A DNA stretch of 62,735 nucleotides, filler included. It is 5 parts of 5 records of this genome, joined end to end, with 100 filler letters (N's around TTAATTAATTAA, not from the genome) between each part and the next. Parts side by side here need not be neighbours in the genome. Positions count along the whole stretch, not along the records: positions 17,673 to 39,893 come from SRR20825006_802; 4 more parts are not named here. One strand, 5' to 3'. Shown piece by piece: positions 3,201 to 51,180 of the stretch (position 1 is the stretch's first letter; each line of letters begins with the position of its first letter). Both the position numbers and the translations under genes were made by a program. A model generated the notes under the pieces. That model was not told where the DNA came from. It did not search any database and was given only the letters and a program-made list of their open reading frames with translations.

Positions 3201-4592
3201 CGGTTCACCCGCATTCCACAGCCCGGCAATGCCCAACCCGACCGAAGTGCCCAGCGCCGCCTCGACGCCCGGATCGGCGGCGATGCCGGACAAGGCGCCG
3301 TCGCCATTGAAGGTCACCATGCGACTGGCCGGATCTTCGAGATTGCGCGCAACCCCGCCTATGCCCAGACCGAAGGTCTGCGCATCAAAGCCGTCGGTCT
3401 CCAGCCCCTCGACATCGAGCCGCGCCTGCCACTGGTCACTGGCCTCGGTGCCGAAGGACACCCGAAGCTGTCCGCCCTGCACCAGGGTCGAGCTGCCGGG
3501 CACCGGCAGCGTCACCTTGTCCCCGTCGGGATCGGCAATGGTCGCCGTCAGGTCGAGCAGGCTGACAAAATTGTCTGCCGTGGTCTGGGCGCGGGCCGTC
3601 AACCCCAGCTGCCCGCCACTCAGCGTCAGATTGGAAATGTCGATGCCGCCGGCGCTCCTGACCAGTGCGCTGGTCGTCAGCCGGGTCTCGGCACCGAAAA
3701 AGTCGCGATAGGGTTGTGCCACCAGGGTCGAAAGCGGCCCGCCCAGATTGGCGTTGATAGCAAAGCCATCGGCCTGCTGCGCAATGGTGGCCGTACCGGC
3801 CAGGGCGGTCTGGTCATTGGCGAGCAATTGCATCTGCGTGGTGAGATCGGCAACCGGCCCCTCGCCGTCCAGCGTCAGCGTCATGGCCGGGCGATCCTGG
3901 ATATTCAGCAGGTTCGCCAACACCCCATTGGGCGGCTCGACCAGCGACAGGCCCAGATCGATGGTGCTGCCCTCACGCCGATAGACCACATCAAGGTCCA
4001 GCGTACCGCCCGGCCCATCGAGCCGCTCGATATCGAGCACCGCATCCAGATTGCCGCCTTCCAGCGTCATCGAGCCATTGAGCGCAATTTCCGACCCGAG
4101 CCCGAACACGCCCTCCCCGAAGGTCACGCTGGGCACGGCCAGTTCGCCGATCTGGATGGCGACGGGAAACTCCGGAATGTCCAGCGCTCCGGCCTCGGGC
4201 GGCGGCAAGTCAACCGCGCCTTCGACCGGAATGGCATTGCGAATGTAGTCGATGGACTCGGCGCGCAGCGAATTGACCTCGAGCCGCCCGCCGAACAAGG
4301 CCGCCTGGTTCCAGTTGAGGCTGGCATTGTTGACGCGCAACCAGACCCCTTCGGCGTCGGAAATGGTGATCTCGCGGATCGAGACATCCGACCCCAGGAT
4401 GCCGTCAATATTGGACAGGCGGATTTGCCGCTCCGGCGTCGAAAGCTGGCCTTCGACAAAGCCGGTCAGGAAGTCCTTCTGCTCCTCATTGTTCATGTCC
4501 TGCGCCACCAGCGCCACCGGCACGGCGGCCGGTGCCAGCAGCAGTGCAGCGATCATCAGACGGCGGCGGTTCGTTGCGGAAAGCTTGACCAT
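255..4592 (-). CDS. tamB: translocation and assembly module protein TamB
   Basis: 1445 aa Gly-rich beta-taco-like protein with an N-terminal anchor and DUF490-type C-terminus (IFIRGRGLDAEVGG, LPQDEVLSRLIF); directly downstream of tamA. Confidence 0.9.
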   Translation of the reverse strand: MVKLSATNRRRLMIAALLLAPAAVPVALVAQDMNNEEQKDFLTGFVEGQLSTPERQIRLSNIDGILGSDVSIREITISDAEGVWLRVNNASLNWNQAALFGGRLEVNSLRAESIDYIRNAIPVEGAVDLPPPEAGALDIPEFPVAIQIGELAVPSVTFGEGVFGLGSEIALNGSMTLEGGNLDAVLDIERLDGPGGTLDLDVVYRREGSTIDLGLSLVEPPNGVLANLLNIQDRPAMTLTLDGEGPVADLTTQMQLLANDQTALAGTATIAQQADGFAINANLGGPLSTLVAQPYRDFFGAETRLTTSALVRSAGGIDISNLTLSGGQLGLTARAQTTADNFVSLLDLTATIADPDGDKVTLPVPGSSTLVQGGQLRVSFGTEASDQWQARLDVEGLETDGFDAQTFGLGIGGVARNLEDPASRMVTFNGDGALSGIAADPGVEAALGTSVGLGIAGLWNAGEPIELAELRVVGQALTAAMAGEIDGTDFDGQIRLATDSIAPFSALAGRSLSGGLELTADGQIFPLTGGFDLVFDGTGTDLRIDDPAADALLAGRVDLSGRLARTEAGISADDFLIANNQVQFSADGVYASDAADFNIALDLTDLGLISEEASGAMAARGSARLTAPEEPLVLMLDGQVPSGTLGDYTLRDAKLGVAATLLDGAINGDVTGVAMLDGYRATLDTHFETDAELQALTDIAFEIAGTRISGDLTRMVETGLIDGRLDVAANDVSLAAALLLADASGAVNAAIELTPQDGEQGAGVTASVAGLRINDISVGRAEITAGISDLFGVPVVNGTATAGNVVAGGVVVDTLSARARQSGDTTSFDAQASLATGTDLDLAGALNPVDGGYRLALDRANLEQGSLAARLANPAVLMVQGESVSLDALRFNVGSGSITATGTAGQALDMVIDIAELPLSIANAVAPDLGLSGTLNGRAVVSGPADDPQVSFEARGGGIGASAIAPFGIAPLTFNASGSFADEVVTLDSLSANGSGGLAVSGSGRVPLTGNGLSVALNGSGPLSLANRFVADRGARVSGTVNFDARVGGSLSSPQFTGSASTNGAEYVDPELNLRLTGIAGRVALSGTNANIESLTANLATGGNVSASGTVGLTPALPVNLAVQINSARYADGDLFVATLSGGLNLTGDLTGAPLLAGNVLIEQANITVPEGLGGGALLIDVEHRRTPADVQQTLDRARINERTGVAAGSGGPQLQLDINVNAPNQIFIRGRGLDAEVGGSVRLTGSISNVQPVGAFNLLRGRLSILGQRVIFETGTVTLVGDLDPQLNFVARTEGDGITVFVTLSGRASAPDISFRSNPTLPQDEVLSRLIFNRSMGELSPIQLAQLAAAAAELVGGGGGGGLVESLRGAAGLADLDVVTDDDGNVGVQAGTYIQDNVYLGATVGANGQSKVTINLDVTEDLTVQGSAGQDGNSSVGVFFEKDY

Positions 4593-12137: not shown

Positions 12138-12237
12138 NNNNNNNNNNNNNNNNNNNNNNNNNNNNNNNNNNNNNNNNNNNNTTAATTAATTAANNNNNNN
12201 NNNNNNNNNNNNNNNNNNNNNNNNNNNNNNNNNNNNN
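12138..12237. other. artificial contig linker
   Basis: 44 N + TTAATTAATTAA (stop codons in all six frames) + 44 N. Confidence 0.98.
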
Positions 12238-17572: not shown

Positions 17573-17672
17573 NNNNNNNNNNNNNNNNNNNNNNNNNNNN
17601 NNNNNNNNNNNNNNNNTTAATTAATTAANNNNNNNNNNNNNNNNNNNNNNNNNNNNNNNNNNNNNNNNNNNN
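17573..17672. other. artificial contig linker
   Basis: Same N44-TTAATTAATTAA-N44 structure. Confidence 0.98.
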
Positions 17673-17933
17673 GCGGCGATGCTCGGCGCCTCGCTCTCGA
17701 TGACGGCTTGTGACCTCGGCGAGCCCGAGCCAGAGCCCGACATGGGCGAGGCCGATATGCCGATGAATCAGGCGCTCTACGGGGTGCCTGCCGTCGACAT
17801 GGACGAGGAGCAACCCGACATGCCCGTGGATCAACCCGTCTACGGCGCGCCCGCCACAGACATGGACGATGAAGAAGCTGATCTGGAGCCTCCCGCGCCA
17901 GCTTACGGGCTGCCGCCCCAGGATATGGGCTGA
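17673..17933 (+). CDS. putative lipoprotein-type precursor/substrate peptide with three x-YG-x-P repeats (5' end cut)
   Basis: ..AAMLGASLSMTA-C lipobox-like signal, acidic Pro/Met-rich body, LYGVP / VYGAP / AYGLP; 33 bp upstream of the radical SAM gene. Confidence 0.8.
   Translation, partial: AAMLGASLSMTACDLGEPEPEPDMGEADMPMNQALYGVPAVDMDEEQPDMPVDQPVYGAPATDMDDEEADLEPPAPAYGLPPQDMG
17751..17930 (+). repeat. 63-nt (21-aa) degenerate tandem repeat, about 3 copies
   Basis: TAC-GG codons at 17778, 17841 and 17904; units ADMPMNQALYGVPAVDMDEEQ / PDMPVDQPVYGAPATDMDDEE / ADLEPPAPAYGLPPQDMG. Confidence 0.85.
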
Positions 17934-17966
17934 CACTTTCCCCACGCCGATCTCTCGAGCAGACCA

Positions 17967-19319
17967 TTGACGCAAGATAAGAGCACCAGAGCCGAAGCAG
18001 TCACCGAAGATCAGCGCCGCGTGGCGCGCTACCTGCGCCCCGGAGATCACGAATCACACACCCCGATCTATGTCGTCTGGGAGATCACGCTCGCCTGCGA
18101 TCTCGGCTGCAAGCACTGCGGCTCGCGCGCTGGCAAGGCGCGCCCCAACGAGCTGACGACCGAGCAATGCCTGGATGTCGTGCGCGAGATGGACGAGATC
18201 GGCGTGCGCGAGGTCACTCTGATCGGCGGCGAAGCCTACCTACGCGATGACTGGGATATCATCGCCAGCGAGATCACCAAACGCGGGATGAACTGCTCGA
18301 TGGCCACGGGCGCCAGGAACCTGACACAGGATCGCGTCGATCGCGCCGCGGCGGCAGGAATGCGCGCGATCTCGATCTCGGTCGATGGGCTCGAGCGCAC
18401 GCACGACGCGCAACGCGGGCCAAAGGGCGCCTTCGCCGCAGCGATGGCGGCCGCCGAGCGGGTCGCGAAATCACCCATCAGGTTGAGCTTCAACACTCAG
18501 ATCAACCGCCTCTCGATGCCGGAGCTGCCAGCGATCGCTGACTTGCTGATCGAAACAGGCGGCAAGGCGTGGCAGCTCCAGCTCACGGTGCCGATGGGGC
18601 GCGCAGCGGATCGCCCTGATCTGTTGCTCCAGCCCTACGATTTACTCGAGTTGTTCCCGCTGCTCGTCTGGATCAAGCAAACAAAGCTCGAACCGAACGG
18701 GGTCAAGATCTTCCCGGGGAACAACCTCGGCTACTTTAGCCCCTACGAACCGCTGCTTCGCCATCGCGGCGAGGGGGGCGGTCACTGGAGCTCTTGCTCG
18801 GCGGGCAAGTGGACGATGGGTCTCGAAGCCGATGGCAAGATCAAGGGCTGCCCCTCCCTCCCCTCCAAGAATTACACGGGAGGTTATCTCGGGAAGGACA
18901 GGATCGCGGATGTGTTCGCGAGCGCGCCCGAGGTCACGCACATTCGCGAGCGCACCAAGGAAGACATGTGGGGGTTCTGCAAGAGCTGCTACTACGCGGA
19001 CACGTGCAAGGGCGGTTGCTCCTGGATGGCGACCACGCTGTTCGATCGCACGGGGAACAATCCCTACTGCATCCACCGGGCGCTGCAATACGAGCAGCAA
19101 GGGTTGCGCGAGCGCGTGGTGCGCATTCAACCTGCCTCGGGCGATCCTTTCGATCAAGGTCTGTTCGAGATCCAGGTCGAGCCGATCCCGGAAGAGGTGC
19201 TTCAAGAAGAGGTGCCGAGCATCCTCGGGCTGGCGACAGGTGACGTGATGAACTTGACCTCGAAGCAGAGTTCTGTTTGGGATGAGGATATGATCCGGGC
19301 GCGCCTGATGCGCACCTGA
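17967..19319 (+). CDS. radical SAM/SPASM maturase, splicease (PlpX)-like
   Basis: VWEITLACDLGCKHCGSRAG (CX3CX2C), IGGEAY, SPASM CSAG..LEADGKIKGCPSL and CKSCYYADTCKGGC...NNPYC. Confidence 0.85.
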   Translation: MTQDKSTRAEAVTEDQRRVARYLRPGDHESHTPIYVVWEITLACDLGCKHCGSRAGKARPNELTTEQCLDVVREMDEIGVREVTLIGGEAYLRDDWDIIASEITKRGMNCSMATGARNLTQDRVDRAAAAGMRAISISVDGLERTHDAQRGPKGAFAAAMAAAERVAKSPIRLSFNTQINRLSMPELPAIADLLIETGGKAWQLQLTVPMGRAADRPDLLLQPYDLLELFPLLVWIKQTKLEPNGVKIFPGNNLGYFSPYEPLLRHRGEGGGHWSSCSAGKWTMGLEADGKIKGCPSLPSKNYTGGYLGKDRIADVFASAPEVTHIRERTKEDMWGFCKSCYYADTCKGGCSWMATTLFDRTGNNPYCIHRALQYEQQGLRERVVRIQPASGDPFDQGLFEIQVEPIPEEVLQEEVPSILGLATGDVMNLTSKQSSVWDEDMIRARLMRT

Positions 19320-19341
19320 ACGCCTCGTGAGGACGCCGAGT

Positions 19342-19818
19342 ATGCACACCCAGAACCGACAACAAGCATGGAGACATCGCGCCAGGAGCGCGATGATCGC
19401 GATGCTTTGCGCCATGACGCTCGGCTCGACGGCGTGCACCACGACCCTGCCGCTCTACTCGCGCCCCGAAGGAGCCGAGGTCGTGATGGACGAAAAGCGC
19501 GCGCTCGGTCAGACGCCGATCCTCGTCAAGGAGCAAGCCTGGGTCTGGACCTCGCACACCTTCACCTTCACCAAGGACGGCTATCGTCCCGAGACGATCA
19601 AGGTGCGCGCCAGACCGAGGATTCCCAACGTCGCGTTCTGTTTGCTTGGCTTCTGTATCTCATGGCTTGTCTGGCCTGTCGGCTTCGCCGGAGAGTACAA
19701 GCGCGAGATCGTGGTCAACCTCGAGCGCGAGTTCGACGCAGACGACTTCGAGACGATGGAGTTGTCAGACGAGCGCGCGCCGCTGCTCGAAGACGGGCCG
19801 ATCCTTTCCTTTGAATGA
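19342..19818 (+). CDS. PEGA-domain lipoprotein
   Basis: LGSTA-C lipobox; SRPEGAEVVMD..LGQTP..TKDGY PEGA pattern; hydrophobic segment near the C-terminus. Start uncertain (19327-19391). Confidence 0.65.
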   Translation: MHTQNRQQAWRHRARSAMIAMLCAMTLGSTACTTTLPLYSRPEGAEVVMDEKRALGQTPILVKEQAWVWTSHTFTFTKDGYRPETIKVRARPRIPNVAFCLLGFCISWLVWPVGFAGEYKREIVVNLEREFDADDFETMELSDERAPLLEDGPILSFE

Positions 19819-19862: not shown

Positions 19863-21548
19863 GTGAACGACGATCTTACGCGCGTCGTGGCGCCATCATG
19901 CCACAACCGCCCCGCCTGTGATGGCTGCCCCCTGCTCGAACAGAGCGGCGAGGAGATGCACCGACTCAAGCGCTCTCGCCTCACTCAGGAACTCTCGATC
20001 GCGCCCGAAACGAGCGAGATCGACGCCGGACAAATCCTCGAAGCCCCGACACGAGAGGGTTGGCGCCACCGCGCGAGGATGGTGTTTGGAGACAAGCGAC
20101 GTCCTGGCGAGGCGCTGCTCGGGTTTTATGAAGCCGGGAGCAGGGATGTGCTCGAGATCGATGCGTGTCCAGCGCACCATCCTGACATCGAGCGAGTGCT
20201 GGCGAGCTTTCGTCGACACATCAGCGCGTGCGAGACGATCACGCCGCACCTGCGTTTTATCGACGCGCGGCGAGGAAGCACGACTGACGAGGGCACATCC
20301 ACAGTGATCTTGACGCTCTGCATGAATCATCGCGTCGAGAACCTCGACGCGTGGAAGGCAGAGGCAGGAGCGCTCGCTGCGAGTATTCGCGAAGATGTCG
20401 AAGGAGTGACGCTCGGGCTTCACCTGGATGTCGGCACGCACGGGCCAGCGATCCTCTCGGGTGACTTTGTGGAAACGAGCGGACCGACGACCTCGCCACA
20501 ACACGCCGGTCAGTTTTCGCTCGAGGTCCCTCCGAAAGCGTTCTTCCAGGTCAACCCACCCCAGCTCTCACGCACGCACGAGTTGATGAAGACCTGGCTC
20601 GGTGAGCTCTCCGACGGGGCCTTGCTCGACCTGTACTGCGGAGTGGGCGCCCACGCGTTGGCGCTGGCGACGAAACCAGACGGGAGCACGCGCCGAGTGA
20701 TAGGCGTGGACATGAGCGAGGATGCGATCGCAGCGGCCAATCATGCGCTCGAGGTGAACTCACTCGAAGGGCGCTTCGAGGTGATGCGTGACGACGCGGA
20801 TGATCTCGGCGCGCAGCTCGACGCGATGGTCGGCGAGCAAAAGCTCGCCGCGATCGTGGTCAACCCGGCGCGCGCCGGGCTCCATCACGGCATGCTCCCC
20901 TGGATCGCAGAGCGCCGAGGGGAAATCGACGCCCTGCTCTACCTCTCTTGTGAGCCAAAGACGTTGGCGAGGGACTTGATCCGCCTGAGGCGGCTGGGGT
21001 TTGCCGTCGAGGAGATGCAACCGATCGACATGATGCCGAATACGGATCAGGTCGAGACGTTGGCGAAATTGGTGCGCGCCGAGCCATGGGAAACAGAACC
21101 TCACGTCGAGCATGCTTATGCTTCGAGCGATGCGGCGAGCAGCGACAGCGCGCGCCGTCTCTCGCCGCGGGTTTCGGGGGTGAGGTTTACCCCTGGCGGC
21201 GAGTCGACGTGGTGGGCTGCGGTCGCCGGTCAGGCGCCCGTGCATGGGGAGTTGCCGAGCATCGAGGGGAGCGAGGCGACGCTGGTCGCGCGGCGCATCA
21301 TGGAGACGCGCGCTTACAGCATCATGGAGATTCGGGCGAAGGGGTTGCAGGAGGATGGCGAGATCCGTCAGCGGCTTCGCGCGTGGGGTTATCCTGTGAT
21401 GGGGGACACAGATTTTGGTGATCGGCGCGTGAATCGTCGCGCGTACAGAATCATGGGACTCGATCGCGCGGCGTTGCACTGTCTCGAGGATAGCGATCAG
21501 GGGCATACAGCGCTGGCCAGCGAACTCGAACTCTGTTTTCGAGCGTGA
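19863..21548 (+). CDS. RlmD/TrmA-family RNA m5U methyltransferase with a C-terminal RluA/TruC-like extension
   Basis: CHNRPACDGC Fe-S motif, FFQVN, LDLYCGVG, NPARAG, catalytic YLSCEPKTLARD, DMMPNTDQVE; about 150 extra C-terminal aa. Confidence 0.8.
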   Translation: MNDDLTRVVAPSCHNRPACDGCPLLEQSGEEMHRLKRSRLTQELSIAPETSEIDAGQILEAPTREGWRHRARMVFGDKRRPGEALLGFYEAGSRDVLEIDACPAHHPDIERVLASFRRHISACETITPHLRFIDARRGSTTDEGTSTVILTLCMNHRVENLDAWKAEAGALAASIREDVEGVTLGLHLDVGTHGPAILSGDFVETSGPTTSPQHAGQFSLEVPPKAFFQVNPPQLSRTHELMKTWLGELSDGALLDLYCGVGAHALALATKPDGSTRRVIGVDMSEDAIAAANHALEVNSLEGRFEVMRDDADDLGAQLDAMVGEQKLAAIVVNPARAGLHHGMLPWIAERRGEIDALLYLSCEPKTLARDLIRLRRLGFAVEEMQPIDMMPNTDQVETLAKLVRAEPWETEPHVEHAYASSDAASSDSARRLSPRVSGVRFTPGGESTWWAAVAGQAPVHGELPSIEGSEATLVARRIMETRAYSIMEIRAKGLQEDGEIRQRLRAWGYPVMGDTDFGDRRVNRRAYRIMGLDRAALHCLEDSDQGHTALASELELCFRA

Positions 21549-21722
21549 CGAGATCGTTTCTGTATCTTGAACTCTGTCTGAAGGCTGTTAGGATTTTCAA
21601 AGGGCAGGACTTGAAATTCGTTGCTTATCCGTGATTATGTGTTGAGCGCGAAACCGTCTGTGACGGTCGAGACTTGTTGCTCCCGCCGCCGACCTTACCC
21701 CTTAACCACTAAGGGCCCAAAA

Positions 21723-23960
21723 ATGCATAGTAACCGACGAATATTGAGCGCGCTTGTTGTGGCGCTCCTGAGCGCAAACTGTCTTGTCGTGACAGGTTGT
21801 GGCCCAGACGAAAACAACGATGACGCGGATATGACTACGCCGGTAGAGGATATGAATCCTGGCGAGGACATGGACCCCGAAGGCGATATGGAGCCTGAGG
21901 AAGACATGAACCCTGGCGAGGATATGGATCCGCCGGAAGAGGACATGAATCCTCCAGAAGAGGACATGGATCCTCCCACGCCGGACATGGACGGTACCGA
22001 TATGGATGGTACCGACATGGACGAGACGGACATGGATGGCGCAGACATGCCGCCAGATATGCCTGTGGACATGGGCCCTGACTGCTCGCTCGACTCGGAC
22101 TTCGACGGTCTCAATGACTGCGACGAGGCGATGCTGTGTACCTCAGCGACAGACCTCGACACGGACGACGACCTGTTGACCGATTACGAGGAGTTCCAGC
22201 TCGGCACGGACCCTTGTGATGCCGACACGGACGGTGACGGACTCAACGACGAGCGCGAGAACTACTTCGGGTTCGACCCGAACAACCCATCGACCTACGG
22301 CGAGATGGTGCTCGACGGTGATCTCTTCATCGTGACGGCATGTGACGTGCCCGAGAGCGAGCCGATCGAGTTCAAGAAGAGCGCGCCAGGTGACTGGCTC
22401 ATCGCGCTGCCTCAGTCGTTCGCCAACTACAACGAGCTCACGATCACGAGCAACAACCCCAAGGAAGCCGCGGCTGTCTACGATGACCCGGCCAACGAAG
22501 TCGCAGGTTTCATCCTGTCGACGGACACCAACGGGAGTGACGCGCTCCAGACGCTGCTCGGCTACCGCAGCGGCATCAACTCCGCCGGGTCGATCTTCCA
22601 GGATTTGACCGAGGGCGAGTTCGACACGCACGATCGCTACAAGGCTGCTCCCGGTGAGTACCGCGTGGCGGCTGGCTCGAAGTCAGCGCGTAAGCTTCGC
22701 GATGACGTCCTGTTCGCTATCGCGCCATTTGCTCGCGCGGACGTGACCGGCCTGCCCGTCTCCTCGGGCAACCAGTACAACAAGTATTACGTGCGCGTCT
22801 CGGTCATCGAGCGCCTCGATCGCATGATCACGACGGTGTCGGTGGCACCCGAGCAGTTCTACAACTCTCGTGATGCGGTCAAGTTCCGCATCAACGACCT
22901 GACCAACACCACCAACGTGGCGCAGTCGGGCGATGGTTGGAGCCTGCGCTGCTACCCCTTCCCGGCAAACACCGAGGTTCCTGCGGCAGACTTCTACTGG
23001 GTCCTCGATCAGTCGGGCTCGATGTCGGATGACTTCGCCAAGGTCCAGAGCTTCGCGAGCGACTTCTACGATCAGCTCCTGAACACGGCGCTCGACTTCC
23101 GATTGGGCGTCGCCAACATGGAGGAAGGCTTCAGCGGACGTCTCCGCCCCACGGTGGGTTGGATCTCCGGCCCCGGCGCGGACACGACCTTCACCGGCGA
23201 AATCCAGTACTACGTCATCGACTGTACGACCAACTTCGGCTTCTCGGACTGCTCCGGCGGCACCGAGCACGGCCTCTACTCGGCGCGCGAAGGGATCAAG
23301 TTCATGCGCAGCGCTGCGGCGCCTCCGAGCGAGAAGATCCGCGCCAACGCTCAGCTCGCCACCATCTTCATGAGTGATGAGGAGGATCAGAGCGTCAAGG
23401 ACGAGAGGGATCCCGATGGCACGACCTTCCCCAACGAGCAGGCGGTCATCAACGATTACTCGGCGTTCTTCGCCAACAACCCGCTCTCGTTCTCCATCGT
23501 CTCCAACGGCGGAAGCTGCGGTGAGGACGCTGAAGGTTACCGCGAAGCAGCGCTCGCCAGCGGCGGCGCCATCGCCGACCTCTGCGCGCAAGACCTGAAG
23601 TCGACCATCACGCAGGTCATCGACATCGTCGCCGGTCGCGCGTCGACCTTCCGCCTGCCTCAGACGCCGATCTCTTCGACTCTGCGCGTCTACCAAGCAG
23701 ACGATTCTGGCACCAACGGTGTCTGGGTGCCTCGCAGCCGCTCCGATGGCTTCGACTACTTCCCGCAGTCGAACTCGGTGGCCTTCTTCGGCGCCTACCG
23801 TCCCAAGTCTTCCACGCTCTCGATGTGCTCGGTCGACGCAGACTGCACCGAGACCGGCGAAGTCTGTCGCGGCGGTCAGTGCGAGCTTGCCATCTCGATC
23901 CAGGTGGCGGTCCACTACCAGACCTTCCGCGACAAGACCAAGACGCCTGTCGGCCCATGA
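21723..23960 (+). CDS. large lipoprotein with Asp-Met repeats, TSP3-like Ca-binding repeats and a VWA domain (CglD-like adhesin architecture)
   Basis: VVTG-C lipobox; DSDFDGLND / DTDDDLLTD / DTDGDGLND; MIDAS YWVLDQSGSM; Cys-rich C-terminus. Confidence 0.7.
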   Translation: MHSNRRILSALVVALLSANCLVVTGCGPDENNDDADMTTPVEDMNPGEDMDPEGDMEPEEDMNPGEDMDPPEEDMNPPEEDMDPPTPDMDGTDMDGTDMDETDMDGADMPPDMPVDMGPDCSLDSDFDGLNDCDEAMLCTSATDLDTDDDLLTDYEEFQLGTDPCDADTDGDGLNDERENYFGFDPNNPSTYGEMVLDGDLFIVTACDVPESEPIEFKKSAPGDWLIALPQSFANYNELTITSNNPKEAAAVYDDPANEVAGFILSTDTNGSDALQTLLGYRSGINSAGSIFQDLTEGEFDTHDRYKAAPGEYRVAAGSKSARKLRDDVLFAIAPFARADVTGLPVSSGNQYNKYYVRVSVIERLDRMITTVSVAPEQFYNSRDAVKFRINDLTNTTNVAQSGDGWSLRCYPFPANTEVPAADFYWVLDQSGSMSDDFAKVQSFASDFYDQLLNTALDFRLGVANMEEGFSGRLRPTVGWISGPGADTTFTGEIQYYVIDCTTNFGFSDCSGGTEHGLYSAREGIKFMRSAAAPPSEKIRANAQLATIFMSDEEDQSVKDERDPDGTTFPNEQAVINDYSAFFANNPLSFSIVSNGGSCGEDAEGYREAALASGGAIADLCAQDLKSTITQVIDIVAGRASTFRLPQTPISSTLRVYQADDSGTNGVWVPRSRSDGFDYFPQSNSVAFFGAYRPKSSTLSMCSVDADCTETGEVCRGGQCELAISIQVAVHYQTFRDKTKTPVGP
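21828..22073 (+). repeat. coding low-complexity Asp-Met repeat tract (15 DM dipeptides)
   Basis: GAC/GAT-ATG recurs at short irregular intervals: EDMNPGEDMDPEGDM...TDMDGTDMDETDM. Confidence 0.9.
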
Positions 23961-35455: not shown

Positions 35456-38400
35456 ATGAGCGTCGAACAGAGCAACGTCATATTCTGCCCCCATTGTGGT
35501 GCGTCGAACGCTCCTGGCGCCTCTTCTTGCGATCGTTGCCAGGGGCAACTCCCGACGAGCTCCGGGCCAAAGATCACGCGCGAGGAAGAGCGCCCGAGCA
35601 TCGACGACCTTATCAACGCAGGACAACAGGCGGGGCTGGTCGAGGAGACCGAGGTCAAGAAGACGCGCCAGGAGATCATGAAGCTGCGCGACGCGATGGC
35701 CGAGGATGTCACTGAAGAGCACCGGATGGTCTCGCCAGCGTCGAAGTCCGTCGAGCTGACCGCCGCCAGCGATGACTCTCACCACGAGCTGCCCGCCCCA
35801 TCAGAGGCCGAGCGCATCCCCGATGACGCGCGCAGGTTGCGCTTTGGCTACAGCGAGGACAACGACATCGTCGTCCCGCGCAACACCATCTCGCGCCACC
35901 ACGCCGTGCTCGCCTACTCGCCATCCACGGGCGACTACTACTTCAAGGATCTCAACTCCACCAACGGCATCTCTATCAATGGCCGCGACGTCTCCTGCGC
36001 CATCGCCAGGCCAGGAGATGTCCTCGGGTTGGGGAGCTACGCGTTCAAGCTCGACAAGGAGCTCACGCAGCGGCTGACCGAACACGCCATGGACGCGCGC
36101 CCCACGCAGGCGATGGAGGCGGTCGTTGGACCGAGCGGCCCGGAGATCGTGATCATCGGCCGCGATCCAGAAGCAGACATCATCCTCGACGCGCCTCAGA
36201 TCTCTCGCCAGCACGTGCGCCTCACGCGCACCGAATATGGCTGGCTCGTCGAGGATCTCGGGAGTGCCAACGGCACCTTCCTCAACGAGCGCCACTCTCA
36301 GCAGATCGACAAGGTCGAGGCAAAGGAGCAGGACGTCATCTACATGGGGAGTTATCGCTTCCCACTGAGCCGACTGCGCGACTTTTTGGGGAACAAGGAT
36401 GACATGACCTCGAGCGGCAAGCTGGCGATGCCGCTCGACAAGAAGATCATCACCATCGGCCGCGGCTCGGACAATGACATCGTCCTCGACGCGCCGCAGG
36501 TCTCGCGCCATCACGCGCGCATCATCCGCAAGGAGAAGACCTTCTTCGTCGAGGATCTCGCCAGCGCCAACGGCACCTTCGTCAACGGCAAACGCGTCGG
36601 GCGCGCCGAGATCTCGAGCGATGACACCCTGAGCTTTGGCACCTACGCGGTGCGCATCGATCTGGCGCGCGGCGCGCTGCAAAAGAGCTACCGTGGCGAC
36701 ATCCTGCTGCAAGCCGAGAACATCCGCGTCGACGTCAAGAACGAGGGCCGCGTCAAGCGCTTGCTCGACGGGATCTCATTCACCGCCTACCCCACCGAGT
36801 TCGTCGGCCTGATGGGTCCCTCGGGCGCGGGCAAGACGACCTTGCTGATGTCGATGATCGGCTACCTCTCGCCAACCTACGGGCGCACCACGCTCAACGG
36901 CGATGATCTGGCCACACACTATGATCGCTACCGAGGCGCCATCGGTTACGTCCCACAAGAGGACATCATCCACGGCGAACTCAGCGTCTACGAGGCGCTC
37001 TACTACACGGCCAAGCTGCGCCTGCCACAGGACACCAGTGATATCGAGATCGACCGCCGCATCCAGGAGGTCCTGCTCGATCTGGAGATCGCGGACACGG
37101 CGGATGTGCGCATCGGCTCGCCAGAGAGAAAGGGGATCTCTGGAGGTCAGCGAAAGAGGGTCAACCTCGCGCTGGAGTTATTGACGGAGCCGAGCCTGCT
37201 CTGCCTCGACGAGCCGACCTCGGGCCTCGCCAGCGAGGACGCCGCCAACGTGATGCGGCTCTTGCGAAAGCTCGCCGACCAGGGCCGAACGATCCTCTTG
37301 ACTATCCACCAGCCCTCGCTGCAGGTCTATCGACAGCTCGACAACGTGCTCTATCTGGCGGACGGCGAGGAGGTCTATTATGGACCGGCCTACCCCGACT
37401 CGATGCTCTATTTTCACCCGGAGATGCGACCCGGTTCTCCAGAGGCCGAGGAGATCCTCGCCGATCCAGGATCGTGTCTGCGTCCGCTGGTCGACGCCAA
37501 GCGCGCTGGCGAGCCGATGGAGACCTTCGCCGCGCGCTATCGGCAGTCGCACTACCACAAGGAGTACGTCGAGGAGCGGCGCAAGAACCAGTCCGATGTG
37601 AACCTGACTGGAAACAGCGAGCGCAAGGCGCCAAGTTTCAAGCTGCATCAGCTGCTGGTGCTCGGTCGCCGCTATATGACGATCAAGCTCAAGGATCGGC
37701 TGGGTACGGCGATCCTGTTGGTGCAGGCGCCAGTGATCGCGACGTTTATCGCGCTCGTGTTCTCGGGGCAGGAGCTCGGCACGCCGAACCGCATGGAGTT
37801 CATGCCCTTCGCGCTGTTCCTGCTGATCATCTCGGCGATCTGGTTCGGTTGCTCGAACGCGGCGCGCGAGATCGTCGCAGAGCAGGCCATCTACAAGCGC
37901 GAGCGCATGGTGAACCTCTCGATCCCGGCGTATGTGGGGTCGAAGTTTGCCATCCTCGCGGGCTTCTCGTTCGTGCAGTGCGTGACGTTGCTCGGCATCG
38001 CCTATGTGGCGCTCGATATGGTGGGGAGCCCGCTGGTGCACCTGTTGGTGTTGTGGGGTTGCGCGCTGGCGGGGACGGGGATGGGGCTGACGCTCTCGGC
38101 GCTGGTGCGCACGACCCCTGCAGCGCTCGCGCTCGTGCCGATGTTGCTGATCCCGCAAGTGATCCTTGGCGGCGCGATCATGCCGATCGAGCGAATGGAG
38201 ACGCCTGCCTGGCTGCTCTCACAGACGACCATCAGCCGTTGGGGCTTTGAAGGGATGCTCCAGATCGAGAACATCTGGGACGCCTATGAACTCAGCGCGG
38301 ACGAGATGCCAGAACCACTGGGGCCAGGGCTCCCAGCGCCGCCTCCACCGCCAAACCCGATCGATCGCTTTATCGGAGACTCGGAGACCTTGCTCGTCGT

Positions 38401-38488
38401 CGACCTCGGCGCGCTCGGCGGGTTCACCTTCCTGTTCCTGATGAGCACCGGGCTCACGCTCTGGAGCAGAGAGCGCTTCGGTCAATAA
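35456..38488 (+). CDS. FHA-domain ABC transporter (zinc ribbon + 3 FHA + ATPase + ABC-2 permease; Rv1747-like)
   Basis: CPHCG..CDRC; three SRxH / S.NG(T) FHA units; GPSGAGKT, ISGGQRKR, LDEPTSGL; REIVAEQAIYKRER. Confidence 0.9.
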   Translation: MSVEQSNVIFCPHCGASNAPGASSCDRCQGQLPTSSGPKITREEERPSIDDLINAGQQAGLVEETEVKKTRQEIMKLRDAMAEDVTEEHRMVSPASKSVELTAASDDSHHELPAPSEAERIPDDARRLRFGYSEDNDIVVPRNTISRHHAVLAYSPSTGDYYFKDLNSTNGISINGRDVSCAIARPGDVLGLGSYAFKLDKELTQRLTEHAMDARPTQAMEAVVGPSGPEIVIIGRDPEADIILDAPQISRQHVRLTRTEYGWLVEDLGSANGTFLNERHSQQIDKVEAKEQDVIYMGSYRFPLSRLRDFLGNKDDMTSSGKLAMPLDKKIITIGRGSDNDIVLDAPQVSRHHARIIRKEKTFFVEDLASANGTFVNGKRVGRAEISSDDTLSFGTYAVRIDLARGALQKSYRGDILLQAENIRVDVKNEGRVKRLLDGISFTAYPTEFVGLMGPSGAGKTTLLMSMIGYLSPTYGRTTLNGDDLATHYDRYRGAIGYVPQEDIIHGELSVYEALYYTAKLRLPQDTSDIEIDRRIQEVLLDLEIADTADVRIGSPERKGISGGQRKRVNLALELLTEPSLLCLDEPTSGLASEDAANVMRLLRKLADQGRTILLTIHQPSLQVYRQLDNVLYLADGEEVYYGPAYPDSMLYFHPEMRPGSPEAEEILADPGSCLRPLVDAKRAGEPMETFAARYRQSHYHKEYVEERRKNQSDVNLTGNSERKAPSFKLHQLLVLGRRYMTIKLKDRLGTAILLVQAPVIATFIALVFSGQELGTPNRMEFMPFALFLLIISAIWFGCSNAAREIVAEQAIYKRERMVNLSIPAYVGSKFAILAGFSFVQCVTLLGIAYVALDMVGSPLVHLLVLWGCALAGTGMGLTLSALVRTTPAALALVPMLLIPQVILGGAIMPIERMETPAWLLSQTTISRWGFEGMLQIENIWDAYELSADEMPEPLGPGLPAPPPPPNPIDRFIGDSETLLVVDLGALGGFTFLFLMSTGLTLWSRERFGQ

Positions 38489-39893: not shown

Positions 39894-39993
39894 NNNNNNN
39901 NNNNNNNNNNNNNNNNNNNNNNNNNNNNNNNNNNNNNTTAATTAATTAANNNNNNNNNNNNNNNNNNNNNNNNNNNNNNNNNNNNNNNNNNNN
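39894..39993. other. artificial contig linker
   Basis: N44-TTAATTAATTAA-N44. Confidence 0.98.
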
Positions 39994-51080: not shown

Positions 51081-51180
51081 NNNNNNNNNNNNNNNNNNNN
51101 NNNNNNNNNNNNNNNNNNNNNNNNTTAATTAATTAANNNNNNNNNNNNNNNNNNNNNNNNNNNNNNNNNNNNNNNNNNNN
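51081..51180. other. artificial contig linker
   Basis: N44-TTAATTAATTAA-N44. Confidence 0.98.

Follow-up and report, generated by a model that had tools for sequence, protein, structure and literature searches.

The window analysed here is a stretch of DNA of 62,735 nucleotides (positions 1-62735) made up of five contigs joined by N44-TTAATTAATTAA-N44 linkers at 12138-12237, 17573-17672, 39894-39993 and 51081-51180. The subject of this analysis is a gene pair at the extreme start of the third contig (17673-39893), consisting of a small precursor gene and a gene for a radical S-adenosylmethionine (SAM)/SPASM enzyme. The precursor gene (17673..17933, +) has lost its 5' end to the contig edge, and 86 codons plus the stop codon (17931-17933) are left. 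Because base 17673 directly follows the contig linker, the small open reading frame (ORF) is open at its 5' end, so that the ATG at 17679 codes for an internal Met and not for a start. The ORF reads AAMLGASLSMTAC, then a 73-residue acidic, Pro-rich tail and then the stop. Its first part (17673..17711, +) reads as the C-terminal portion of a signal peptide of the lipoprotein type. The Cys codon (17709-17711) closes its lipobox, M-T-A-C, and this segment is nearly identical to that of the closest relative, locus L001. The tail (17712..17930, +) is the predicted mature part, is probably disordered and contains three 21-residue units. Each unit carries one x-Y-G-x-P site on the plus strand: L-Y-G-V-P at 17775..17789 (Tyr codon 17778-17780), V-Y-G-A-P at 17838..17852 (Tyr codon 17841-17843) and A-Y-G-L-P at 17901..17915 (Tyr codon 17904-17906), the third seven residues from the C-terminus. 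The units read DM PMNQAL YG V P AV DM, DM PVDQPV YG A P AT DM and DL EPPAPA YG L P PQ DM. Numbered from the Met at 17679, Y34, Y55 and Y76 are the only tyrosines of the small ORF and stand at intervals of exactly 21 residues. Gly accounts for 0.08 of the window tail, and simple arithmetic gives about 5e-4 for three of three Tyr falling in Y-G. No Pfam or NCBIfam family describes the precursor.

The enzyme gene (17967..19319, +) encodes 450 aa, is separated from the precursor gene by a gap of 33 bp and was assigned by NCBIfam and Pfam matches and by tree placement. Its CX3CX2C motif for the radical SAM 4Fe-4S cluster, CDLGCKHC (C44, C48 and C51; 18096..18119, +), is invariant in 39/39 aligned homologues. 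The same is true of the seven Cys of the SPASM region (18795..19070, +), namely C277, C295, C338, C341, C347, C351 and C368, which would serve auxiliary clusters (alignment A1, where the numbering is +1). The GLEADGKIKGCPSL motif lies at 18819-18860 (+) and the GNNPYC motif at 19053-19070 (+). The initial annotation had described the upstream cut by the contig edge, the SMTA-C, the three tyrosines 21 residues apart, each in x-Y-G-x-P and within the pattern D-[ML]-X6-YG-X-P-X2-DM, the 33-bp spacing and the enzyme motifs, and all of these were recovered in the translated window, with the pattern matched by all three units.

The initial annotation had also read the enzyme as splicease-like, one that could excise tyramine at the Tyr-Gly sites of its neighbour. 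A Pfam scan of the window enzyme gave Radical_SAM at 75 bits and SPASM at 20.0 bits, slightly below the 21.5 cut-off. The top NCBIfam match was TIGR04103 ('nif11-class peptide radical SAM maturase 3'), a full-length match of 462 bits (E 1.4e-138), followed by TIGR03913 ('GDL motif peptide-associated radical SAM/SPASM maturase') at 434 bits. The next family scored 169 bits, MftC 111 and PqqE 84. PlpX is the founding splicease, and we take TIGR04103 to be its family and to equal InterPro IPR026482. A review places PlpX in InterPro IPR026482 and describes it as excising tyramine at Xaa-Tyr-Gly (PMC11002830). No splicease structure was found in the PDB, where the best match to the window enzyme was SkfB at 81 bits.

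Searched exhaustively with HMMER, a set of 1.84 billion cluster representatives yielded 510 at E <= 1e-30, and 30 representatives at 50% identity out of the best 150 were rescanned against NCBIfam. TIGR04103 and TIGR03913 were the top two families for all 30. The TIGR03913 cut-off was passed by two of these, P0139 (771 bits) and P0157 (646 bits); none of the 30 passed the TIGR04103 cut-off, the highest being P0144 at 551 bits. A FastTree phylogeny was built from 85 sequences, a set that does not include the experimentally characterised spliceases. The window enzyme and every TIGR04103-like and TIGR03913-like representative tested fell into one 78-row clade with a Shimodaira-Hasegawa (SH)-like support of 99, separate from more distant representatives. 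Within the tree the window enzyme had its own clade of 38 rows (support 99), made up of homologues from a genome scan and mainly from Myxococcota, and the TIGR03913-type enzymes formed a separate clade of 22 rows (support 94). Judged by these profile matches and this placement, the enzyme appears to belong to the splicease-like superfamily.

Homologous loci were collected by scanning one genome per prokaryotic species, which yielded 42 loci with enzymes 49-76% identical. By record title these are mostly Myxococcota metagenome-assembled genomes (MAGs) and include Bradymonadia, Lujinxingiaceae, Polyangiales and Kofleriaceae. Upstream of the enzyme gene on the same strand, 39/42 loci contained ORFs with a CxxC...CxxC arrangement and at least one Y-G, 44 such ORFs in total. 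At a further locus, L009, the precursor ORF is divergent and lies on the opposite strand, bringing the pairing to 40/42 loci overall. The idea that small ORFs beside homologues would share the YGxP motif of the window was thus borne out, with 86/109 sites reading YGx[PA][PA]. There were two exceptions. At L039 a single CxxC was seen and there was no lipobox Cys. At L038, from a Rhodospirillales MAG, the upstream ORF (3442-3927, +) has neither zinc ribbon nor lipobox and ends in ...GYGPP...IYGPP, and its enzyme nests within the Myxococcota clade of the window enzyme. This suggests gene transfer with a leader swap and recognition of the core motif, and judged by this locus the Y-G site appears to travel with the enzyme clade. 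No recognisable precursor was found at L043 and L051, which carry paralogous enzymes. At five loci a tandem pair of precursor genes precedes a single enzyme gene: L001 (2828-3250 and 3420-3893), L019, L031, L034 and L036.

No other gene was conserved beside the enzyme. Clustering of the ORFs from the 42 loci recovered the enzyme in 42/42, together with two clusters of antisense shadow ORFs within the enzyme gene. BLASTP joined the precursor in only 25 loci because its sequence is low-complexity, and the next most frequent neighbour cluster was a kinase-like ORF in 5/42 loci. No RiPP (peptide made by the ribosome and modified after translation) recognition element (RRE), protease or exporter gene was conserved near the enzyme in this clustering, and no PlpY-like RRE partner was found in the 42 loci, leaving the precursor as the sole conserved neighbour. 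Of the genes further downstream in the window, the PEGA lipoprotein, the RlmD-like gene and the 779-aa lipoprotein had 0 matches beside homologues (tblastn, E <= 1e-5, 52 loci). The lack of PlpY, protease and exporter genes that had been read from the window is therefore real by neighbour clustering. It is also normal for non-cyanobacterial systems, as in the accessible part of the source all spliceotide types outside cyanobacteria are without a Y protein (PMC11414181). The enzyme and precursor genes form a conserved two-gene module.

The precursors of the family share one layout. A zinc ribbon with four Cys stands at the N-terminus and is followed by a basic stretch, by a hydrophobic segment whose last residues are [A/G]-Cys, and by an acidic, Pro-rich tail with one to five P-x-Y-G-x-P-P sites, over a length of 90-260 aa. 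After exclusion of one ORF without a start codon, 43 of the 44 ORFs were aligned. The sole invariant columns were the four zinc-ribbon Cys and the Cys that ends the hydrophobic stretch. This lipobox Cys was present in 43/43, with A in 27, G in 15 and S in 1 just before it, which gives family-wide support to the lipobox first read from the single window gene. An uncharged run of 12-21 residues precedes the Cys in most precursors, with at least one K or R before the run in 40/43. In precursors with the lipobox correctly located, the Cys falls at residue 46-94, after the folded zinc ribbon. Judged from the alignment, the layout matches that of a lipoprotein signal peptide save for an N-terminal extension of 30-70 residues. 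An AlphaFold2 model of the L001 precursor predicted a small beta domain at residues 1-40 (predicted local distance difference test, pLDDT, 81-93), a helix spanning residues 52-72 and, for the tail, disorder without secondary structure (pLDDT ~50-60). By comparison with these relatives about 65-70 N-terminal residues, comprising the zinc ribbon and linker, are missing from the window precursor; its fragment starts in the middle of the hydrophobic stretch, so that this part would have been lost at the contig edge. The missing N-terminus was not found in six frames of the whole window, where the only zinc ribbon was an unrelated one in a gene for a transporter with FHA and ABC domains.

Public annotation lists the enzymes as 'radical SAM protein' and the precursors as 'hypothetical' or 'Zn-ribbon protein', and the nearest ESM Atlas clusters to the precursor are unnamed Myxococcota proteins. 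A profile search for further precursors returned at least 16 proteins, a figure that is no census as low-complexity words saturated the candidates. The zinc ribbon of the L042 precursor (3541-3963, +) weakly matched positions 426-451 of the 477-position TIGR03913 model (E 0.0074), which hints that a similar zinc ribbon may be fused to the C-terminus of TIGR03913 enzymes.

Tyr-Gly sites were analysed in 45 precursors (the 43 aligned, L009 and the window), with the tail defined as the part after the lipobox Cys. Y-G accounted for 109/121 tail Tyr. When each tail was shuffled 2000 times, the mean number of Y-G was 13.8 and the maximum 24, and 0/2000 shuffles reached 109. The leaders contained 6 Tyr in 2954 residues. 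Y-G-x-[PA]-[PA] was present at 86/109 sites, with Pro at -2 in 71/107 and Pro at +3 and +4 in about 80/107. Position -1 was more varied: L (41), V (21), E (13), A (11), P (6), D (6), M (3), I (3), H (3) and R (2). One site was present in 13 precursors, two in 11, three in 11, four in 9 and five in 1, and the last site lay no more than 12 residues from the C-terminus in 29/45. The 21-residue spacing pointed out in the initial annotation is exact in the window gene and is no family trait; spacings in the relatives range from 10 to 93 residues, and the exact period of the window is therefore local. As a control we used a 779-aa lipoprotein-like ORF on the same contig (21621..23960), which has a similar DM-rich acidic linker after ...TGC and zero Tyr in that linker. 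Because this comparable linker is without Tyr, the Y-G sites are not a by-product of acidic linkers. The site statistics indicate selection on Tyr-Gly in the tail.

From the observed pairing, enzyme placement, Y-G conservation and signal-peptide-like segment we infer the chemistry, the lipidation and the biological role of the system as follows. In the cytoplasm the radical SAM/SPASM enzyme would act on the Tyr of each x-Y-G and excise tyramine. Sec would then export the unfolded tail, Lgt would lipidate the lipobox Cys, and signal peptidase II would remove the zinc ribbon and signal peptide. If the substrate is exported as a lipoprotein, the zinc ribbon and signal peptide would therefore serve as a leader removed by signal peptidase II, at once the export signal and a disposable recognition element. 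The window product would carry three ketoamides derived from Leu, Val and Ala. Across the family the product would be a lipid-anchored polyanionic envelope peptide that bears between one and five electrophilic ketoamides and would most plausibly act as a tethered trap for, or inhibitor of, serine or cysteine proteases. Such a trap in the envelope is possible because spliced peptides, and not unspliced ones, inhibit these proteases: the accessible text of PMC11626197 describes inhibition of Ser and Cys proteases by spliced ketoamide peptides and inactivity of the unspliced peptides. Because the pairing of a splicease-like enzyme with a YG lipoprotein recurs across many Myxococcota, the cell probably makes a membrane-anchored peptide with reactive ketoamides. 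The whole package, a two-gene spliceotide-type system with tyramine excision in the cytoplasm, lipoprotein export and leader removal by signal peptidase II, we consider reasonably likely.

Several points weigh against this proposal. The window precursor is without its N-terminus and its intactness is not demonstrable. TIGR04103 and TIGR03913 are 'equivalog' models and the window enzyme falls under both curated cut-offs, with 462 vs 725 bits for TIGR04103 and 434 vs 592 (591.75) bits for TIGR03913, and is therefore a member of neither equivalog. The tree was built by FastTree only and leaves several forks open. As its best representative reaches 551 bits it holds no true TIGR04103 member, so that it is the HMM (hidden Markov model) and not the tree that connects the enzyme with PlpX itself. 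The splicease-like assignment is supported by the top-ranking families and by the clade support of 99, and not by the two cut-offs. Related radical SAM/SPASM enzymes, PqqE and MftC, perform other Tyr chemistry. In the subgroup L021-L024, 8/12 tail Tyr lie outside Y-G. Lipobox position -3 is typically Leu, Val or Ile and is only partly canonical here (A 12, I 7, L 6, M 4, T 4, V 4 and others; n=43). The signal peptide is not N-terminal and lies 30-70 residues in, behind the zinc ribbon, which is atypical for Lgt/Lsp substrates. The role as a protease inhibitor could hold by analogy only.

The position of the hydrophobic segment bears on the first alternative, in which splicing takes place and the product is no lipoprotein. 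The segment would then be a membrane anchor or an enzyme-activating leader helix and the zinc ribbon would be retained, giving a bitopic protein or a peptide freed by an unlinked protease. A segment that follows a folded zinc ribbon fits this fate, and in type II systems a helix of the leader docks at the place on the splicease to which PlpY binds (PMC11414181). The recurrent (R/K)-(S/G)-G-x-(L/I/V)-A-A-x-L also seems, in our judgement, over-conserved for an ordinary signal peptide. A simple anchor or docking helix, however, needs neither the invariant Cys, nor A, G or S before it in 43/43, nor basic residues just before the uncharged run, and lipoprotein-like ORFs on the same contig have similar signal ends (TGC in the ORF at 21621, TAC in the ORF at 19327). 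We regard this alternative as rather unlikely.

A second alternative keeps the enzyme-substrate pair and changes the chemistry: the enzyme would form a C-C or C-O crosslink at Tyr, modify its beta-carbon or epimerise it, and tyramine would be kept. The scores of the enzyme under both curated cut-offs and its placement in its own clade are compatible with this, SPASM enzymes such as PqqE and MftC commonly carry out Tyr-directed crosslinking, and the flanking prolines counted above are not known as a feature of characterised splice sites. Against this, MftC (111 bits) and PqqE (84 bits) score far under the two splicease-like families, the strict Gly after Tyr (109/121) is a hallmark of splice sites and no conserved crosslink partner residue is evident in the variable tails, making different chemistry improbable. 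That the adjacency is incidental, the small ORF being an ordinary acidic-linker lipoprotein or a non-gene and the enzyme acting elsewhere, would agree with the acidic DM-rich linkers common in the lipoproteins of this organism (21621..23960) and with a precursor outside Pfam and NCBIfam families, but is highly implausible given a pairing kept in 40/42 loci across 49-76% enzyme identity with no other gene conserved beside the enzyme, a Y-G enrichment that shuffles never equalled and a control linker on the same contig that is Tyr-free.

Returning to tyramine excision followed by lipoprotein export, the proposal can be extended to a class of 'RiPP lipoproteins'. In this class the zinc ribbon and lipoprotein signal would be both the recognition leader for the splicease and the export signal, and the housekeeping signal peptidase II would be the leader peptidase. 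The product would be a disordered lipid-anchored polyanion with one to five ketoamide warheads that acts as a tethered covalent protease trap in the envelope of (often predatory) Myxococcota. We advance this class tentatively, as a possibility about which we are more doubtful than confident.

Partners of the sister family were examined in 80 metagenome loci related to P0139, 72 of which had enough upstream sequence. An upstream ORF with x-Y-[GA] followed by ...I...G-D-[LV] was present in 59/72 of these TIGR03913-type loci (among L059-L137), with the sites PYG 40, LYG 25, LYA 12 and three others. Both curated neighbours and the window clade are therefore tied to partners bearing x-Y-G. In these 'GDL motif' peptides [PL]-Y-[GA] stands about 12-15 residues ahead of G-D-L, and Ala replaces Gly in 13/81 sites. 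Precursors with a zinc ribbon and lipobox were also seen beside a second Myxococcota enzyme clade, at L049 (552-1454, -), L050 (2721-3089, -) and L052 (2691-3182, -). There Y-G directly follows the lipobox Cys (A-C-Y-G-[ILV]...) and precedes Cys-rich repeats of the D-x-D-G-D-G type. As Y-G adjoins the lipobox Cys in this clade, the residue converted would be the putatively lipidated Cys itself.

The family is a common one. Enzyme matches at E <= 1e-60 were present in 104/301 sampled Myxococcota genomes, and a homologue of at least 58% identity in 28/301 (counted from the table). No match above the TIGR03913 cut-off was found in the 301 genomes. The cultured species Lujinxingia vulgaris has a homologue at 60% identity, which makes the prediction testable at the bench. 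Genome G001 and 60 relatives gave 0/61 with a homologue at E <= 1e-20; G001 is akin to the other window contigs only and its negative is therefore uninformative on the source organism. Contig 5 matched G001 at 100% and contig 4 at 94%, contigs 1-2 at 65-74% only, and contig 3 with the gene pair had no match. The five contigs do not look like a single organism, which suggests that the bin or the assembly is mixed.

Type I spliceotide systems (PlpX/PlpY/PlpA and PcpXYA from Pleurocapsa) likewise have a radical SAM/SPASM enzyme and several x-Y-G sites per precursor. Unlike type I, the system described here has no Y protein and no epimerase or PCAT exporter gene nearby, its enzyme is under the TIGR04103 cut-off, and its leader consists of a zinc ribbon and a lipoprotein-type signal peptide in place of a Nif11 or NHLP leader. 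The type II binary systems of Rheinheimera (RhaX/RhaA and RcsX/RcsA) share the enzyme plus precursor organization without a Y protein, and a type II spliced ketoamide inhibits Ser/Cys proteases. Compared by description, type II precursors are short with a helical leader and Cys-bridged cores, whereas those seen here measure 90-260 aa and combine a zinc ribbon and a lipobox with a long acidic tail. The TIGR03913 systems resemble the window pair in that P0139, a true member (771 bits), shares 46% identity with the window enzyme and that neighbouring peptides carry [PL]-Y-[GA]. Their enzymes form a separate clade, however, and their GDL peptides are helical with the site near the N-terminus and no lipobox; the GDL motif is absent from the window precursor. 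TIGR04133 ('rSAM_w_lipo'), which we take to be a radical SAM/SPASM enzyme paired with a small lipoprotein, was the third-best match of the window enzyme at 169 bits, far under its cut-off of 425. PqqE and MftC are also SPASM enzymes acting on Tyr of a small precursor, but they match the window enzyme at only 84 and 111 bits, and their precursors are single-site and need a PqqD-like RRE.

Peptide splicing itself is already known. According to a review, a 2022 survey reported YG-rich neighbours of PlpX-like enzymes in 189 genera and confirmed 27 enzyme-substrate pairs (PMC10849128), and myxobacterial examples may well be in that survey. In the literature searched, with supplements and the 2022 survey itself outside the search, we found nothing linking spliceases to lipoproteins, lipoboxes, zinc-ribbon precursors or Myxococcota. 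Should the survey cover this precursor type, what remains here is a well-documented example and the reading of the leader as that of a lipoprotein. The final spliceotide natural products in native hosts were still elusive according to the accessible part of a 2022 review (PMC9811515). If our proposal is true, spliceotides would gain a defined native end product and a cellular location. The family predicts as its mature product the whole part that follows the lipobox Cys, carrying a lipid and spliced at defined positions. It also predicts the location of the product and the enzyme that takes off its leader, and neither a dedicated protease nor a dedicated exporter would be required. Spliceases are prized for placing beta-amino acids and ketoamide warheads in gene-encoded peptides, and the strict P-x-Y-G-x-P-P site, set as it is in disordered sequence, could be put to use as a small tag for splicing.

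Four other genes of the third contig were inspected. Downstream of the enzyme gene lies a small PEGA-domain lipoprotein (19327-19818, +), followed by an RlmD/RlmC-like 23S rRNA methyltransferase (19863-21548, +) with a C-terminal extension weakly matching the pseudouridine synthase TruC; neither is conserved beside enzyme homologues. The 779-aa lipoprotein-like ORF that served as linker control (21621-23960, +) has its long DM/DP-rich acidic linker after ...VTGC and matches no Pfam family. Further along the contig, the gene at 35456-38488 (+) encodes a protein of 1010 aa in which a zinc ribbon at the N-terminus (DUF7577) is combined with three FHA domains, an ABC ATPase and an ABC-2 permease.

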